64,000 nucleotides of DNA from Escherichia coli (lineage in GTDB: Bacteria > Pseudomonadota > Gammaproteobacteria > Enterobacterales > Enterobacteriaceae). Where the stretch lies: assembly GCF_003790525.1 (NCBI RefSeq), contig NZ_CP033635.1; one strand, given 5' to 3'. Positions 1 through 9,169 of the stretch are shown here, piece by piece; within the stretch, counting starts at the first letter, position 1, and each line of letters opens with the position of its first letter. The position numbers and the translations under genes are program-made. The notes beneath the pieces are model-generated. The model made no database searches, was not told the DNA's origin, and saw only the letters and a list, made by a program, of their open reading frames with translations.

Positions 1-965
1 TCAAATTCAACGCGGCGAACTTCTCCATCCCAATTTTTCAGCATGTCAATTGCCGCACGGGCCATCTTATCGACAGGTTGTCGAACAGCAGTTAAAGAAG
101 GGACGTTGTAAACCGATTCTTGTGTTGCATTAAAGCAGACCAGCGCAACATCTTCAGGAACGCGCAGCCCATGTTCTGCCAGGGCGCGTAAACAACCGAG
201 AGCCTGTTGTTCATTCGTCGCAAACAGGGCGCGTGGCAGTTGGTTCTCAAGCATGCGTTTTGTCGCTTCGTAACCGCCGGCGCGGGTATAGTTGGTCGAA
301 AAAATCCATGAGGGATTGACCACTAACGATGAGGCTTCCAGCGCCTGCCGCCAACCCCGGATACGATCCTGAGTATTCAGCATTTCACGTGGGCCGCAGA
401 TGATGCCGATGTCGCGGTATCCGTGATCAATCAGATGTTGTGTTACCAGCATTGCCGCCAGTTGTTCATCAACCTGGATAACGCTGACGTTAAGTCCAGG
501 ATCCACACGATCGAGCATGACGCAGGGGGTACCGCTCTCCTGAATCAAATTGATATAAGGATGGCGATCAACACTGGTGTAGATCAGCCCGTCAACCTGA
601 CGGTGCAGCATATTATTAATGAGTTCACGTTCACGGCAGCTACTGTCGCCTGCGTCTCCCAGCAGGAGTACTTTGCCATCAGCAAAGGCTTCGTGCTGCA
701 GAGCATGAGCTATAGAAGCGATAAACGGGTTCGAGATGTCCGGCACGACTAGCCCGTAAGTTTGCGTACTCCCTGAAGCCAGCGCACGCGCGATGCCATT
801 GGGTCGATAACCGGTTTTCTTAATTGCCTGTAGTACACGTTGCCGAGTCGCTTCGGCAACGGGGCGCGGACCATTATTAATAACGTAACTAACGACAGCG
901 ACGGATGTCCCTGCTTCTTTTGCCACGTCAGAGCGTGTTACGCGTTGTGAATGTGATTGAGTCAC
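1..965 (-). CDS. LacI-family transcriptional regulator (3' end runs off the window start)
   Basis: Minus-strand frame from a GTG at 965..963 translates to MTQSHSQRVTRSDVAKEAGTSVAVVSYVINNGPRPVAEATRQRV..., a typical LacI-type N-terminal HTH followed by a periplasmic-binding-like sugar domain. No stop occurs before position 1, which is why it is absent from the ORF track. Confidence 0.6.
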   Translation of the reverse strand, partial: MTQSHSQRVTRSDVAKEAGTSVAVVSYVINNGPRPVAEATRQRVLQAIKKTGYRPNGIARALASGSTQTYGLVVPDISNPFIASIAHALQHEAFADGKVLLLGDAGDSSCRERELINNMLHRQVDGLIYTSVDRHPYINLIQESGTPCVMLDRVDPGLNVSVIQVDEQLAAMLVTQHLIDHGYRDIGIICGPREMLNTQDRIRGWRQALEASSLVVNPSWIFSTNYTRAGGYEATKRMLENQLPRALFATNEQQALGCLRALAEHGLRVPEDVALVCFNATQESVYNVPSLTAVRQPVDKMARAAIDMLKNWDGEVRRVEF

Positions 966-1069
966 GAAGCACCTACCTAATTGCGTTCAGAGTGATTTTT
1001 TCCAGACAGCATAAGGCGTTATGACCCAAAAATCTTTGGTAAAGAACGCGCATCTCACGTTCTCTGGCC

Positions 1070-2470
1070 TTAAATTGCATCCTCGGGTAAGTTGAGATCC
1101 CGCCCGCGAGTCTCTGGTGCAAAGAACGTGGTCACCAGTCCAATCGCGGCCATAAAGGCGAAATAGATAGCGATTGGCCACCAGTGTCCGTAAAACGAGA
1201 GTAGCGCAGAGGCGATAAGTGGCGCTGTCCCGCCAGACATAATGGAACCGAGCTCTTTTGCAAATGCCATTTTGGTATAACGATTAGTGACACCGAAAAG
1301 CTCAACGCCCCACGCAGCCTGAACACCAAAAATACCCAGTGAAGCAAGCCCCATCCCGGTAATGATCGTCGGGATAACAATCCACGGCTCACGGGAATCC
1401 AGCAGCATAAATGCTGGAAAGGCATACAGGATCAGTAACAGGCAGAACCAACGATAGATGATACGTCTACCGAATCTATCGGACAGCCAACCCGCCAGAG
1501 GAATAATGGCAAATCCCAGAACGGATGCAATAAGTACGGCTGCCGTGGGTACGGACTCATCTACCATTAGTACTTTAGCGACATAACCAATGATAAACCC
1601 CTGAGCGAGATAAGAAGGACCATTCTCACCTATGCGTAATCCGACCATAGTCCAGAAGGCACGGGTCCGTTTCCAGAAGCTACGAGTGTCATGTTGTTGT
1701 TGTGCTTTTCCCTCACGAAGAACCTTTTCTCGTTCAGCCTGCAGAAGGGCTTTTTGACGTTCAAAGACTGGTGTTTCGCGTATATGACGACGAATTAATA
1801 GAGCGGCAGCAGCAATAAGAATGCTACAAAGAAAAGGAATACGCCATCCCCAGTTTAATAAGTCATCCTTGTCCATTTGCAGGACGATGAGCCAAACCAG
1901 TGAAGCCAGTAATGTTCCGCTGTTCGACCCCAGACCAATAACAGATGAAACTAGTCCACGTCGTTTAACGGGAGCATATTCACCAAGCATCACAGTACCG
2001 CCTGAAAGCTCCGCGCCAGCTCCCAGCCCCTGAGAAAATCGAAGGATAACCAGACATATCGGTGCCCAGACGCCTATCTGGGCGTAACTGGGGATTAATC
2101 CTATTAGCATGGTCGACATGCCCATCAATCCAATAGTGATAACCATGACAATTTTCCGACCATGTTTATCGCCTATCCAGCCGAACAGTAATGCACCAAT
2201 AGGGCGGGCAATAAACCCAACAGAATAGGCGGCAAAGCTGGAAAGTAATGCTATGACGGGTGTCACCTCCGGAAAAAAGACATCGCCAAAGATAATACCT
2301 GCGGCAAGTCCGTACAGAGCAAAATCGGCATACTCCATTGTAGTGCCTAGCCAGCAGGAAAAGGTAGCTCTCCAAAACTCGCGACGTCCCTCGGGGGTTT
2401 CCAGACGCTCCTGAGCTGCCTGTTGGTTATCCACTAGGGGAACAGAGGATGATGGATGATGTGTGTTCAT
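1070..2470 (-). CDS. MFS metabolite:H+ symporter (MHS-type, ProP/KgtP/ShiA-like)
   Basis: 466-aa ORF with about 12 predicted hydrophobic segments, the GxxxDKxGRK motif (WIGDKHGRKIVM) after TM2 and a long charged central loop. Adjacent and co-oriented with the LacI-family gene. Confidence 0.8.
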   Translation of the reverse strand: MNTHHPSSSVPLVDNQQAAQERLETPEGRREFWRATFSCWLGTTMEYADFALYGLAAGIIFGDVFFPEVTPVIALLSSFAAYSVGFIARPIGALLFGWIGDKHGRKIVMVITIGLMGMSTMLIGLIPSYAQIGVWAPICLVILRFSQGLGAGAELSGGTVMLGEYAPVKRRGLVSSVIGLGSNSGTLLASLVWLIVLQMDKDDLLNWGWRIPFLCSILIAAAALLIRRHIRETPVFERQKALLQAEREKVLREGKAQQQHDTRSFWKRTRAFWTMVGLRIGENGPSYLAQGFIIGYVAKVLMVDESVPTAAVLIASVLGFAIIPLAGWLSDRFGRRIIYRWFCLLLILYAFPAFMLLDSREPWIVIPTIITGMGLASLGIFGVQAAWGVELFGVTNRYTKMAFAKELGSIMSGGTAPLIASALLSFYGHWWPIAIYFAFMAAIGLVTTFFAPETRGRDLNLPEDAI

Positions 2471-2897
2471 AAGAACTCCTTGATATTATCTGTCAGATAT
2501 ACATCACAGGTAGATATCTTTCTTAAATCTACTCATGTAGATATTGTGTTTTATTACATATAAATAAATCTACTCGCGTAGACAAACCAGTCAATGGAAG
2601 TAAAATCGTGATAGAGATCACCCATAAGGTGTAAGCGCAAAGCTGGCGTTGTCTGTATCCCCGCTCCTGCCGGGCTAATTTACGCTTAAAACATCAGCAA
2701 TACACCAGCGTATTCAGTAGCGACAAGCATGAGTCACACTCAAACTCCCGACCATCACCATCCTTGAAAGGTTACAGATCCTGATATACCTGTGTTTATA
2801 ATTACCCTACTGTATTTTCATCATGAAACTGAATCGCTACACAGAGCTGTTTATCTGCAGAGTACAGGCTGGATATGGTTTATTATTACCGTAAGGT

Positions 2898-4311
2898 GTC
2901 AACGACGGATGAAAAGTGGCTCTTCCGCAACCTGGGTGGAAGAAAATGGATGAAACTTTCTGGTGAATAAAGATCTAAGCTGTTTTAAGTTATGGGCAAC
3001 GCAATGCACTCTCTTAAGACACTTCTACAGTTACCTTGCGGATGGAGATGCAGTCGACAAATTATTAGCTCTGACGGTATAACCCTCCATCTCCACGGAA
3101 AACGCAAAACAGCACAAGTCCTGAATGCTTTAAGCGTAGCGACTCTGTTCATAGTTATCGTCGGCGCCGGATACAGCATCTACCCTGCTTAGGGCAGACG
3201 CTATGGCTTGTATTTTCCGTCCGCCACTGGTACTGCCGTAACCCGGCTTGTTCACGTAAAATTTTTGCCGGGTCGCTTGCCCCCTTCGCCGGTTCACTCC
3301 CAGCATTCTTCACAGGTGTTACAAAATTTACAACATCAACTGGGATTAATAGCCGGAGGTGAGGCCGGGAAACAGGCAGCAACGGCAGTGGGGCTCCGTT
3401 GCAGTGCTGATACTCTTCTTCGCAGGGTTATTAATACCCCGGAGACGAAACAGTCAGGCGCGCCTCATGTCGGTATTGATGAGTGGGCGTGGCATCGGGG
3501 CTACCATTACGGTACGTTAATCGTCAATCTTTATACTCACCGTCCCCTCGTCCTGCTTCCCGGTTGCGATCAGAGTACGCTGGCGACCTGGTTCAGAAAA
3601 TATCCGGAAATACAGGTTGTCTCACGTGACCGTGGCGGAGTCTATGCGACAGCAGCACGTGAAGGTGCACCTCAGGCCAGACAGATAGCTGATCGATGGC
3701 ACCTGCTAAAAAATATTGGCGATGCGCCTGAACGAATGATGTACAGACAGATGCCTCTGATACGTCTTGTTGCCAGTGGGTTGTCACCAAAGAAATCACC
3801 TGAGCCAGAACTGTCTGTGCCTGTAGCATCGCTCCGTCGTCCGGAACGCCTTAAACAGCAAACCCGCCAAAAATGGCATCAGCGTTGGACAGAGGTTATG
3901 GCACTACATAACAAGGGATGTGGGTTCAGGGAAATATCCCGTATTACAGACTTATCACGTGTGACAGACAGTCTCTGGGTGTGTTCAGGAACATTCCCTG
4001 AAATGTCAACCCGGCCTCCAGAGCGAGGACTTATGGACCCATGGAAGGAGTGGTTAAAAGAGCAACGAGAAAGTGGTAACTTCGGCGCGTGGCTGCGAGG
4101 ATGGAAGCTGATGCTGCGGCTATATGTGAGGCAATCAGCAGTCGCTGGAATAATGGGGGGTGTCGAAAGTCATGTAAATCGGCTAAAAATGCTGAAAGGC
4201 CAGATGTATGGTCGAGCCGGATTTGAACTACTCAGGCAGAGGGTCATGAGTCCACTGGCATGAAAATCTCCATCCAGGTTGCGGAAGAGCCACTTTTCAT
4301 CCGTCGTTGAC
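2898..4311 (+). mobile_element. Insertion sequence (ISL3-family-like), about 1.41 kb, with perfect 38-bp terminal inverted repeats
   Basis: gtcaacgacggatgaaaagtggctcttccgcaacctgg at 2898..2935 is exactly reverse-complemented at 4274..4311. A transposase-like reading frame fills the interior. Confidence 0.6.
2992..4263 (+). pseudogene. IS transposase interrupted by an in-frame TAG stop at 3190..3192
   Basis: Track ORFs 2992..3192 and 3208..4263 are in the same frame, separated only by an amber codon. The C-terminal part has DDE-type transposase character (DEWAWHRGYHYGTL... DRWHLLKN). Combined length of about 423 codons fits ISL3-family transposases. Confidence 0.5.
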
Positions 4312-5098
4312 AGCTTGGGGGGTAGTGCATCGGTACCTCTAGGTCAAAGGAGGTATTCATATCCATATTAACGACTTGAATATGTTGACAGTACTGATTC
4401 AGATTAACGAAAAACGACCGAGCTTCTCTACTACGCACCTCACCTATCCAGAGGATTGATGAGTATCCGCATCGGCTACGACGGTGCGTAACGATGAGCT
4501 TTGAACAGGGCAAACTCTTTCATGACCCGGCCTTGGCAGTACATCAATCAGACCCTGTGACCTCTATTTGCAACTGACGTTTGTCGATAGTATTGATGAT
4601 ATGCTAGTGCAGGGTAAGAAATTACGAAATATGTTTAATCGGCAAGATTTTGAGTAACGCCTCAACATGCTCAATGAGTCATGTGGTCTGATGAGCATAA
4701 GGCTTTAGCCAGCTGATATAATCCCGAACTATGCCGTAGTTAGGGCAAAGAATGCGGTAGACGGGTAGGCGTAACTGAACTGGAAATACCAGTATTGTTC
4801 ATTACGATAAGGTGCGAAGTAAAGCATCGTGAACGGCTTTAGCCTGTTTGCCACAAGAATAATGACCGTTTTCAATCGGTTTTAGGTGGATGATGAGGGG
4901 GATTTTACTCAGTAGGGACGACGTCAAAGCCTATCCAGAGATAAATGGAAAAGATAGTATTCGAAATTGAGAACGGTTGGGGTTGGTTATCGTTCTGTTT
5001 TAGCAACTAAACAATAACTCCCCAACCGTTATCATTTCCAGCACACGATAATCTGCAATGAACATTAAAAATTCACGGCGGCGGTCGCTTTCCTTAAT

Positions 5099-6061
5099 TT
5101 ACGTCTCCTCTTGGGAGTGGATAATATGGGTGCCTGTTTCGCCACGCAGTGCCGCGGACAGGCATTCAGGCGTGGTGATAATCACTCTTTTACCTCCACG
5201 TTCCAGGAACTCCAGACTGGCAAGAATCTTCGGTAACATACTCCCAGGCGGGAAGTGACCCTCCTGCATGTAACGGGCCATCGTTAGGACATCCACTGTA
5301 TCCAGTGCATGCTGGTTGGGTTTCCCAAAATGAATACTCACTTTTTCCACGCCGGTGGTGATCACCAGAATGTCGGCGTGAATTTCGCGAGCCAGTAGCG
5401 CGCTAGAGAGATCTTTGTCGATAACCGCGTCCACGCTTTGGTAATCCCCTGCGTCAGTACGCACCACCGGAATGCCACCGCCGCCCGCGCCAATCACCAC
5501 AAAGCCTTGCTGGATCAGAGTCTTAATGGCAGGTGCTTCGACAATACGTTTCGGTTCCGGCGAGGCGACCACGCGGCGATAGCCCCGTCCGGCATCTTCA
5601 ACAAAACGCCAGTCAGGGTTTGCCTTTTGTAGTTCATCACGCTGGTTTTCACTAAAGAATGCACCGATGGGCTTGGTGGGATGGACAAACCCCGGATCGT
5701 TTTTATCCACTTCCACCTGAGTCACCACGGTGACGGCTTTTTTCTCGCCGTGAGGCGCCAGCCGGTTGTTCAGCGCCTGCTGGATCAGATAGCCAATGCC
5801 GCCTTGCGTATCCGCCACACAGTTCGCCAGCGGCGTTAAGGGTAGCCCTTCGCGCTCGTGGGCTATCTCCGCGCGGCGTAAATCCAGACCGACCTGCGGC
5901 CCGTTGCCGTGGGTCAGCACAATGTCGTAATCGGAAGCCAGCATTTCCAGAACCGTATCGGCGACGGCCTTCACCGCCTCCGCCTGATGCTCAATCGACT
6001 GGCTGGCGTTATCTTTGATAATGCTGTTGCCACCAATGGCAACGACCACAAGTTCTTTCAT
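5099..6061 (-). CDS. Carbamate kinase (ArcC/YahI-like)
   Basis: 320 aa beginning MKELVVVAIGGNSI, with DIVLTHGNGPQVG and a GGGGIPV motif characteristic of the carbamate kinase / amino acid kinase fold. Last gene of the minus-strand operon. Confidence 0.8.
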   Translation of the reverse strand: MKELVVVAIGGNSIIKDNASQSIEHQAEAVKAVADTVLEMLASDYDIVLTHGNGPQVGLDLRRAEIAHEREGLPLTPLANCVADTQGGIGYLIQQALNNRLAPHGEKKAVTVVTQVEVDKNDPGFVHPTKPIGAFFSENQRDELQKANPDWRFVEDAGRGYRRVVASPEPKRIVEAPAIKTLIQQGFVVIGAGGGGIPVVRTDAGDYQSVDAVIDKDLSSALLAREIHADILVITTGVEKVSIHFGKPNQHALDTVDVLTMARYMQEGHFPPGSMLPKILASLEFLERGGKRVIITTPECLSAALRGETGTHIIHSQEET

Positions 6062-6087
6062 AGAATTATCTTCCGTTTGCAGGCTAT

Positions 6088-7638
6088 TCAGGTCGTTTTA
6101 GTCTCTTCCTGCTCAGACGCAGCCACTGTTTCACGGCTATCAATAACATGCTTGAGGGCAAACATAGCAAGCATCATCAGGTAGGCCACAACAAACACAA
6201 TCGAGCTGCCTTCCGCAAAGCCAACCGCTGGGGAGTGAATCACGCCAAACAGCGATAACAGTGCTCCAAAGGATGCAGCTATCGCCCCGCGCAGCGGCTT
6301 ATTCATAATGGCAAAGATCGCAATGCATCCCCACAGCATGCTGGCCAGCGGTGCACCGCTTCCCAGATGCATCAGTCCATCGTAATAGACGCCTTTGCTG
6401 TGCAACAGGTCGCTACCAAGTTTCTCAGCGGATGTTCCGGCTGCGCCCATCACGCTGTTAACGATGGTCAATGCCCAGTTGGCGACCCATGGGAACAGAC
6501 AGATGAAAATAACGGGAACCTCGACTTTAGGAGTTTCTCGCACCACCTGATTGGCGGTTACCACACCGATAAAAACCAGAATTGGCACTATAGCAGTCAT
6601 GGGAATAATGGCGAGCATAAACGCGCCCAACCCAAACAATGGCACCAGGAACATAGTGATGCCTGATGCGAGGGTATAGCAGATACTAGCGCCCATAGCT
6701 TTCCAGCCTGCATGCCCAACATATACGGTTACCGGGAACGGATTACCCAGCATGCAACCGAGCATGGAGGCAAAGCCGTTCGCCATCATGACCTTACGGG
6801 TGTTGTATTCATCACCAGCCGCGTGCGCACTTTCAATGTTCTCGAGGTCAAAAATGTAGTTAGCCAGGCCCAAAGGAACTGCAGAAGCCAGATATGGCAG
6901 AGCGTGCGGCAAACCTTGCAGGAAGCTCCTTACATGAATTTCCGGCGGGTTGAAGCCGAAGGAAGACATCGACGCTTTAATGTCTTCCGGGCTTTGTAAA
7001 CCGGATATCCACGCTAGGGACGTACCAGCAATCAGCAACAGCAAACCGGTAGGAATATGGGGAAAAATCGGCTTCTTACCGAACCAGTTAATGAAGATCA
7101 ATAACAGGACGATGAAAGAAACTGTCGGCGCTTCGAACGCTTGCAGCATCGGGTTCATTGCCAGCAGTAATAACCCCAGTCCGGACAGACAAGAAAGCAG
7201 CACTGTACGCGGGATCATCTTGCGGATAGTCTCACCCAGGAAGGAGCCACCGACCAGGATCAACGCTTCGACAAAGCACCACACCAATCCTATCTGAATA
7301 GCAAAGTTGGCATCTTTGGTTTGCTGATAAACCGGCATCAGCACCAGGAATGTCACGGTAAAGATTGAGGGTGCGCTCGGTCCAGACGGCAGCGCCGTTA
7401 CATCGCTACGACCGGTTTTCTTCACCATCTGTAGACCAAACCAGGAGTAGCAGACACTGGCCGCCAGCACTGCAAGACCAAAGGCAGGCGCAATGCGTCC
7501 ATAGACAATTTCAGTAGGGATTCCGACGACAAAAATTAGCAGACCCATCATTGTCAGCAGGTTAGTCAGATTGTTGGTCATCAGTCCAAAGTAAGCCGCC
7601 CAGTCACCACGTTTCCATTCTAGTTTTATGCTGTTCAT
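6088..7638 (-). CDS. Polytopic membrane permease (possibly NCS2/AzgA-like nucleobase-type transporter)
   Basis: 516 aa, highly hydrophobic with many predicted TM segments, embedded between the DUF1116 and carbamate kinase genes. Family assignment is tentative. Confidence 0.45.
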   Translation of the reverse strand: MNSIKLEWKRGDWAAYFGLMTNNLTNLLTMMGLLIFVVGIPTEIVYGRIAPAFGLAVLAASVCYSWFGLQMVKKTGRSDVTALPSGPSAPSIFTVTFLVLMPVYQQTKDANFAIQIGLVWCFVEALILVGGSFLGETIRKMIPRTVLLSCLSGLGLLLLAMNPMLQAFEAPTVSFIVLLLIFINWFGKKPIFPHIPTGLLLLIAGTSLAWISGLQSPEDIKASMSSFGFNPPEIHVRSFLQGLPHALPYLASAVPLGLANYIFDLENIESAHAAGDEYNTRKVMMANGFASMLGCMLGNPFPVTVYVGHAGWKAMGASICYTLASGITMFLVPLFGLGAFMLAIIPMTAIVPILVFIGVVTANQVVRETPKVEVPVIFICLFPWVANWALTIVNSVMGAAGTSAEKLGSDLLHSKGVYYDGLMHLGSGAPLASMLWGCIAIFAIMNKPLRGAIAASFGALLSLFGVIHSPAVGFAEGSSIVFVVAYLMMLAMFALKHVIDSRETVAASEQEETKTT

Positions 7639-7750
7639 GGAATCTCCTTAACAGGTTAAGCATCGTTTGCGATCATGGAGATCGCCCAGCCCTGAAGGTA
7701 AACAACGTTTTCCGCTACTGTGGGGCTAACTGCGTTAGCCCCGGTTATTG

Positions 7751-9169
7751 TTATTGGCAGTAGTGGTCACGCCAGTTGAGGATCGCCTTTTCAAAACAAG
7801 TGAACGGCGGGTGAACAATTCCTGCGCCGATCATGCCGATCCCTGCGTCTTTGTGCGCAATGGCTGTGTTAATTACCGGCAGAATGCCTGTACTGCCTAC
7901 ACGTGTAATATCGATAGCGGTCGGTACGCCCATAAAACCAAGCAGGGGAATGGTGACGTTGGGGTTTTCTCCGAGAGTGATTTCTCTCATTTTACGTGAG
8001 AAATCAATAGCTTCCTCAACTGTTCCGCCCACCAGTGACACAATAGCTGGTGCCGTCGCCATAGCGAAACCGCCAACGCCGTAGGTTTCGGTAATTGCAC
8101 TATCACCGATATCACGTCCGGAATCCTCTAGCTTATAGCCCGCAAACATCGGCCCAATCACCTGCTGCGCCGGACCGGTAAACCACTGGCCCGGCAAACC
8201 GCTAATACGAAGACCGAACTCAACACCATTGCGTGCCATCGTTGTCACCACGGTGCTGTATTCAATGCCGTGCGCAGCGTCCATTGCGGCTTTACACATT
8301 GCCATCCATGTTGGTCCTGAGAAGTAATCACTACTGAGGACAAACTCGAACACCTCACGCTGCTGCTCAACAGGGTAGCCAGTCTGAATAATCCACGGCG
8401 TCAGCGTCTGAATCAGCAGCGCCGTCCCGGCGTTGTTGCGGTTATGGCACTCATCGCCCATATGCAGCGCCTGCGCTAACATCAAGTGCAGATCGATTTC
8501 GCCCGCCAGCTTCATAGCATCGCGCAACATAGGTCCCAGTACATCTCGCATCCAGTTAAGACGCTCTATAACGCTCTGGTCGTTAGCGCCCATACGCAGG
8601 ATCTTTGCCATCTGCTCGCTCATATTGGTATATGCGCGGTTTCCATAGGTTTTGTTCTCGACGATGTGCATAAACATCGATGCAGACGTGACACCCGCCA
8701 TTGAGCCGACACAGTCATGTTCGTGGCACGGAGAGAAGATGATTTCACCTGAAGCAGCTAGTTCGGCGGCATCATCCAGATCTTTCGCCAGTCCTTCAAA
8801 TACCAGAGCCCCGGTTACTGCGCCCTTCATTGCGCCGCACATTTTTTCCCAGTGGATTGGCGGCCCGGCGTGAAGGATAGTGTTACGGGTCATACCCGGC
8901 ACGACGTTGATCGCCTGATCATAGCCAATTAGCACAGGATGCGACTGGATAATGCGTTCCAGCGCCAGCTGATTAGCAGCTGCAATTTTGTCTGCCAGTG
9001 GTGAAGCGGCAATGTCGTCCAGTGCCGTTACCACTTGTATGTTTCCTTGGCCTGGCGGTGTCCAGTCAAGTTGGGTTACCGGTACATTCTGCTTTTTCAT
9101 GTCATCGCTGAACATTTCGATACCGACATTAATAACGTTCAGCGGCTGATTAAACAGTGTCTGGCTCAT
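7751..9169 (-). CDS. DUF1116-family protein (YahG/YlbE/AllG-like, putative carbamoyltransferase subunit)
   Basis: 472 aa. Its start codon overlaps the upstream FdrA-like stop by one base (TGATG), indicating translational coupling. Same size and operon position as K-12 YahG. Confidence 0.7.
   Translation of the reverse strand: MSQTLFNQPLNVINVGIEMFSDDMKKQNVPVTQLDWTPPGQGNIQVVTALDDIAASPLADKIAAANQLALERIIQSHPVLIGYDQAINVVPGMTRNTILHAGPPIHWEKMCGAMKGAVTGALVFEGLAKDLDDAAELAASGEIIFSPCHEHDCVGSMAGVTSASMFMHIVENKTYGNRAYTNMSEQMAKILRMGANDQSVIERLNWMRDVLGPMLRDAMKLAGEIDLHLMLAQALHMGDECHNRNNAGTALLIQTLTPWIIQTGYPVEQQREVFEFVLSSDYFSGPTWMAMCKAAMDAAHGIEYSTVVTTMARNGVEFGLRISGLPGQWFTGPAQQVIGPMFAGYKLEDSGRDIGDSAITETYGVGGFAMATAPAIVSLVGGTVEEAIDFSRKMREITLGENPNVTIPLLGFMGVPTAIDITRVGSTGILPVINTAIAHKDAGIGMIGAGIVHPPFTCFEKAILNWRDHYCQ

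Follow-up and report, generated by a model that had tools for sequence, protein, structure and literature searches.

The locus examined here, close to the start of a 64,000-nucleotide stretch of Escherichia coli DNA (referred to below as the window), raises the question of how a compact insertion sequence (IS) can have perfect terminal inverted repeats (IRs) while its transposase (TPase) gene appears to be split by a single amber codon, and whether such an element is still mobile, is expressed by recoding, was wrongly sequenced or is simply dead. We favour the last of these answers. The feature, located at positions 2897..4312 (1416 bp), is very probably a dead deletion derivative of the known element ISEc38 (ISL3 family), from which, to judge from its sequence, a TPase could no longer be made.

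Identity of the element

The 1414-bp query shows a 100% match to the TUM9803 chromosome (E. coli; NZ_CP135671.1), in which the PGAP annotation places, at the same coordinates, a frameshifted pseudogene labelled "ISL3 family transposase". Intact copies of ISEc38 are 1764 bp long, and the element, a non-autonomous relic read on the plus strand, matches them with ~94% identity in two pieces that span 1762 bp. This alignment bore out the original prediction of a compact IS with intact terminal repeats and a defective TPase gene. The ~94% matches carry the PGAP name "ISL3-like element ISEc38 family transposase" and have an intact 539-aa ORF. Compared with a copy named "ISEc38 family" by PGAP, the relic shows 93.9% identity (81 differences in 1336 aligned internal bases, outside the deletion described below). 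According to the ISfinder naming convention, elements share the same IS name at about 95% DNA identity or more; as judged from the 6% divergence, the relic is a relative or an isoform lineage of the plasmid-borne ISEc38 reference, and not a recent copy of it.

The 19 full-length matches that rank next all have a length of 1415 bp and the annotation ISL3 family transposase. One of them, the Ch1 copy, is annotated as a frameshifted pseudogene, and the PGAP verdict was pseudogene for every relic copy whose annotation was inspected. The relic is an object of a known kind, already flagged by RefSeq as a frameshifted ISL3-family transposase pseudogene, and, being a routine IS pseudogene, it carries little biological weight. 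ISEc38 itself is an ISL3-family IS of E. coli, which is named in ISfinder and appears routinely in mobile-element surveys (PMC12137328); a literature search for its ISfinder length and target duplication returned survey tables only.

Terminal inverted repeats and extent of the element

The perfect inverted repeats, originally described as 38 bp long, proved to be real and to contain one more base at each end. They are therefore 39 bp in length, and occupy positions 2897..2935 (left IR, IRL; plus strand) and 4274..4312 (right IR, IRR; minus strand). The sequence TGTCAACGACGGATGAAAAGTGGCTCTTCC... is found at both ends of the relic, and the repeats extend imperfectly beyond the 39 bp (46 of 48 positions matched over 2893-2940 / 4269-4316). 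A count for a 29-nt core of the repeat gave exactly two occurrences in the 64-kb window and none in 100 shuffles.

When the element is compared with 12 other ISEc38 copies from different contexts, the similarity ends at precisely T2897 and A4312, the tips being TGTCA (left) and TGACA (right). We also identified an occupied/empty pair of sites, L016/L019 (L016:181-2000 versus NZ_AP019857.1), of which the empty one lies on a sister plasmid: the occupied site reads AGTAC-TGTCA...TGACA-AGTAC, and the empty site contains a single AGTAC. This pair defines ISEc38 as a 1764-bp element that generates a 5-bp target duplication, and it sets the limits of the element of the window at 2897..4312. Direct repeats of 5 bp flank two of the 12 compared copies (AGTAC in L016 and ACAAC in L006), and in a third copy four of the five bases match. 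The norm for the ISL3 family is a target duplication of 8 bp and IRs that usually begin with GGCTCTT; in ISEc38 this motif sits 21 bp inside the tips.

The pentamers flanking the relic, TAAGG and GCTTG, differ, and thus the target duplication is absent. It had been proposed that such an absence would mean that the repeats are not the termini of the element; the duplication is indeed missing, yet the 12 other copies and the occupied/empty pair place the termini at precisely these positions. We also asked whether the 21 outermost bp of the repeat, lying outside GGCTCTTCC (the typical ISL3 tip motif), might be a palindromic target sequence and not a part of the element. This was rejected, since the window does not contain the palindrome in uninterrupted form and the L016/L019 tips lie outside those 21 bp.

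A comparison of the termini of L002, L006-L010 and L013-L018 revealed two versions of the outermost 21 bp at the ISEc38 ends, variant A (TGTCAACGACGGATGAAAAGT) and variant B (TGTCACGAACGGTGCAATAGT), which are found in the combinations A/A, A/B, B/A and B/B. Copies with unlike ends, i.e. L016 (A/B) and L006 (B/A), still have target duplications, and the ISEc38 TPase therefore seems to accept both end variants.

The perfection of the repeats had been read as a sign of recent transposition or strong conservation. It is accounted for instead by the youth of the relic lineage, whose carriers differ by ~0.9%. Between the window and Ch1 there are 12 substitutions in 1338 internal positions, and the probability that the 78 nt of the repeats stay unchanged is ~0.5; consequently, the perfect repeats need no special cause.

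Lesions of the transposase gene

The TPase pseudogene extends from 2992 to 4263 (plus strand; PGAP annotation of NZ_CP135671.1, profile NF033550), and its start and stop codons are those of the intact 539-aa ISEc38 TPase gene. Its lesions were mapped against an intact copy of ISEc38, L002, encoding the 539-aa TPase WP_075262665.1 (L002:1595-3214). The alignment revealed exactly four indels and nothing else that is disruptive, with no premature stop codon in the homologous frame. These lesions, all given on the plus strand, are (i) a 1-bp deletion at 3117..3118, found in all relic copies compared, which removes the T of a TGT codon specifying the first Cys of the CPEC zinc-ribbon motif and shifts the frame, (ii) a 1-bp insertion at 3297..3298, whose exact base is ambiguous within a few nt and which restores the ATG frame, (iii) a 349-bp internal deletion, with its junction at 4077..4078, by which TPase residues ~363-479 are lost and the frame is shifted, and (iv) a 1-bp insertion in a run of six Gs (4155..4160), which again restores the ATG frame. 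The indels thus compensate pairwise (-1/+1 and -349/+1; the first +1 frameshift lies 180 nt after the -1), and the ATG frame is regained past each scrambled patch. The 349-bp deletion hits the catalytic region, where ~117 codons are lost in addition to the frameshift.

After frame correction, the translated product scores 291 bits on the NCBIfam model NF033550 (transpos_ISL3; cutoff 180), which identifies the gene as a true ISL3 TPase relic; the Pfam domains DDE_Tnp_ISL3 (E=2.2e-24) and Zn_ribbon_ISL3 (E=1.7e-6) were also recognised. In the homologous frame, 31 synonymous and 41 non-synonymous codon differences separate it from L002. The dN/dS ratio between the relic and ISEc38 is 0.35, which indicates that a large part of the 6% divergence was acquired before inactivation, when selection still acted on both lineages. 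The intact TPase ORF of an autonomous element is absent, the gene being disrupted by three frameshifts and the 349-bp deletion. From these lesions we infer that the relic is, as originally suggested, probably inactive.

The intact ISEc38 TPase (539 aa) contains an insertion of ~135 aa (residues ~296-430) inside the ISL3 DDE domain, at the place where Pfam splits this domain. A match to the IS21 transposases, in their N-terminal HTH region (NF033546, E=1.6e-16), covers residues 303-398 of the protein. The deletion of the relic takes the second half of this ~135-aa insertion, together with ~50 residues of the core domain.

The apparent amber codon

The geometry of the ORFs was described correctly in the original prediction: one frame contains both 2992..3192 and 3208..4263, with the TAG at 3190..3192 (plus strand) between them. 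The TAG, however, does not interrupt the TPase frame, as had been claimed. It is located between the deletion at 3117/3118 and the insertion at ~3297, i.e. where the ATG frame is not the TPase frame. The homologous frame in this region (codon starts divisible by 3) reads CTA CCC TGC TTA GGG CAG (L P C L G Q), and the corresponding residues of ISEc38 are L P C S G H; according to the alignment, the true codons are TTA (3189-3191) and GGG (3192-3194). The Pfam zinc ribbon (PF14690) was detected only in the non-ATG frame (E=4.7e-8), and the 66-aa piece encoded in the ATG frame gave no Pfam match.

The T at position 3190 is private to the TUM9803 assembly. Copies at the same locus in other strains were inspected for the TAG; the Ch1 copy, the FEX669 plasmid copy and the PKF4 copy all have a C at this position, as does intact ISEc38. 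The TAG is thus a by-product of reading the ATG frame across the first scrambled patch, and it originated by a private C-to-T change.

The presence of two ORFs in one frame, with only the TAG and a few codons between them, could suggest that a single amber codon interrupts an otherwise intact TPase gene, which is expressed by stop-codon read-through or suppression. We consider this practically inconceivable, given that, by comparison with the intact homologue, the stretch with the TAG is read in the wrong frame, that the zinc ribbon lies in the other frame and lacks its first Cys codon, and that ~117 codons of the catalytic region are gone. In addition, intact ISEc38 has a single uninterrupted ORF of 539 codons, and recoding is therefore not part of the biology of this family. 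A recoding signal should be conserved in the functional members, in which the genes are single ORFs; the TAG is present in one strain only. Since the TAG is out of frame, the proposed read-through is irrelevant and would rescue nothing. This case shows that a compensating pair of frameshifts can mimic an in-frame stop codon between two long ORFs of the same frame, and that a comparison with an intact homologue should be made before read-through is proposed.

Shared lesions and decay of the reading frame

It had also been suggested that the interrupted frame may be a sequencing artefact. The frame breaks would then be sequencing or assembly errors of the TUM9803 assembly, and indeed one indel falls in the run of six Gs (4155-4160), a typical site of such errors, while T3190 is found in this assembly only. 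All four indels are, however, present at the same locus in the Ch1 chromosome, the FEX669 plasmid and the PKF4 chromosome, and a further, independently assembled locus (L011) shares the 349-bp deletion and the right-hand indels. The indels recur in chromosomes and plasmids that were sequenced independently of one another and differ in country and host, which excludes an artefact as their origin, and T3190 is irrelevant to function, whichever base is true. Errors of this assembly are thus an extremely improbable explanation of the frame breaks.

The Ch1, FEX669, PKF4 and L011 copies have an extra G at position 3928, which is absent from the window copy, and single copies contain more indels. 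Each lineage has its own additional frame-breaking mutation, a pattern of neutral decay.

With a C at position 3190, the ATG frame runs without interruption from 2992 to 4263, so the ancestral relic had a frame of 423 codons running across both scrambled patches. When the intact gene is read in the relevant alternative frame, 6.7% of its 60-codon windows and 40% of those of 26 codons are stop-free, which gives a naive chance of ~3% for the open 423-codon frame; this is a post hoc estimate from a single case. The compensation within both frameshift pairs, together with this low chance, would be compatible with past selection for a truncated TPase-derived protein, e.g. an inhibitor of ISEc38 transposition. 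Nevertheless, we regard such selection as very improbable, because the frame has since been broken independently in both sister lineages (by the TAG in TUM9803 and by the extra G in the four copies named above), the annotated copies that we inspected are pseudogenes, and the estimate carries the limits just given.

Genetic context of the relic

On the right, the relic adjoins an older, heavily decayed fragment of an ISL3-like TPase gene (N-terminal part; 4313..4831, minus strand), which contains many stop codons and frameshifts and ends exactly at the right tip of the ISEc38 relic. It was recognised by profile searches only, i.e. by NF033550 (E=2.4e-9, below the cutoff) and, weakly, by the Pfam models HTH_Tnp_ISL3 and DDE_Tnp_ISL3; a BLASTP comparison with the ISEc38 TPase gave no significant match. 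In the sister loci, PGAP labels this fragment "transposase; frameshifted; incomplete". The carbamate kinase gene follows at 5099..6061 (minus strand), and its end is 786 bp from the right end of the element. The element had been thought to abut the carbamate-kinase operon and possibly to truncate a downstream gene. The operon is indeed nearby, but the 786-bp gap holds the older TPase relic, and the truncated neighbour is this decayed ISL3-like TPase gene and not a cellular gene.

The left flank is the region upstream of a gene encoding an MFS transporter. A search for the continuation of the older relic in all six frames of the left flank (2471-2896) gave no TPase signal, which means that the two flanks are not halves of one disrupted gene. 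As far as can be read from the flanking DNA, the element evidently sits at the joint of two unrelated accessory modules, one flank having been replaced after the insertion. A replacement of this kind would explain why other copies share the left flank and differ in the right one (L008 versus L013 and L014).

Distribution of the relic and related copies

The same right junction was found in 142 records (136 genomes), comprising chromosomes and large plasmids. At every locus whose annotation was inspected, the relic is adjoined by a cluster of carbamate kinase, permease and YlbE (DUF1116) genes, with fdrA next to it in the record of the window. In the inspected plasmid copies and in the PKF4 chromosome, the left end of the relic is truncated by IS1.

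A comparison of positions 1-9200 of the window with L004, L005 and L012 showed that the module (carbamate kinase, permease and YlbE, plus FdrA in the window) is nearly identical between chromosomes and large F-type/ColV-like plasmids. The DNA to the left of the relic varies: it contains IS1 and IS100 in plasmids (L004 and L012) and IS1 alone in the PKF4 chromosome (L005), versus MFS, LacI and nucleoside hydrolase genes in the window. The relic is a handy marker of the boundary of this carbamate-kinase/xanthine-permease module, which moves between ColV-type plasmids and E. coli chromosomes, mostly those of avian and extraintestinal strains.

A second locus with the 349-bp deletion was identified in strain DG341-1 (L011:2475-3795; NZ_CM144243.1), beside shiF/iucA. 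In this copy the left 350 bp are diverged (about 80%) and the left repeat is missing. From its structure, it looks like a recombinant of two ISL3 relics, placed next to the aerobactin operon.

An ISEc38-like copy (at least 80% coverage) is present in 2837 of 5426 complete E. coli genomes, i.e. in over half of them. The bulk of these contain a single chromosomal copy of 1748 bp with an internal stop codon, located between genes for zinc-ribbon proteins and a truncated ggt fragment by php (L010, NZ_CP021689.1 4021819-4026566). This copy has the appearance of an old relic that has been inherited widely.

Mobilisation in trans or passive inheritance

An inactive TPase gene does not by itself immobilise an element, and the relic could be non-autonomous yet mobile, being moved in trans by an intact ISEc38 TPase whose gene lies on a plasmid or at another place in the genome. 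Several observations are compatible with this: (i) both 39-bp ends are intact, (ii) active-looking ISEc38 copies move with either end variant, which indicates tolerant recognition of the ends, (iii) ten places in TUM9803 match the element, and (iv) the right part with the 349-bp deletion occurs at the shiF/iucA locus with another right flank. Many transposases, however, prefer to act in cis. The window copy lacks a target duplication, its right junction is found in one shared context in all 142 records, and the shiF/iucA locus is a mosaic in which the left part is diverged and the left repeat unrecognisable, which is better explained by recombination than by transposition. We therefore consider mobility in trans unlikely, although appreciably less so than any of the alternatives discussed above. 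There is a slightly smaller chance that either the 39-bp ends are perhaps still bound and moved by an ISEc38 TPase supplied in trans from the other ISEc38-like copies of this genome, or the ancestral 423-codon frame once produced a truncated TPase that modulated transposition.

The course of events that we prefer is passive inheritance. The relic would have been carried along inside an accessory module (FdrA / YlbE / xanthine permease / carbamate kinase) that is found on ColV-type plasmids and in chromosomal islands, and whose boundary it marks, and the 5-bp target duplication would have been lost by a later rearrangement; we infer this order of events. A joined-flank search of 5,426 complete E. 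coli genomes found no empty site for the window copy. The same type of search gave no empty sites for two other chromosomal ISEc38 copies; all three copies searched are located at junctions of unrelated DNA.

Comparison with known elements

The relic resembles ISEc38 in its homology from the first to the last base, its terminal repeats, the positions of the TPase start and stop codons, and the zinc ribbon and DDE_Tnp_ISL3 architecture of the encoded protein. It differs from ISEc38 in that 349 bp are missing, three 1-bp indels are present and the 5-bp target duplication is absent.

With MITEs and other non-autonomous deletion derivatives of ISs, the relic shares a non-functional interior placed between intact terminal repeats. 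However, its length of 1.4 kb is far above the typical size of MITEs, and it occupies essentially one genomic context without target duplications, so that amplification is unsupported. A MITE-like element would be present at several unrelated sites, each with a target duplication; for the relic we found one right junction in 142 records, and the only other context is the mosaic devoid of the left repeat.

A parallel within the family may be drawn with the 1748-bp copies of the ggt/php locus. These differ from the window relic in that they have kept the 349-bp segment, contain an internal stop codon and occupy a different locus; they match the query only to position 1400, and their outer right terminus is a diverged variant. 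Like the window relic, they are inactivated members of the same family, fixed relics that are inherited vertically or with islands.
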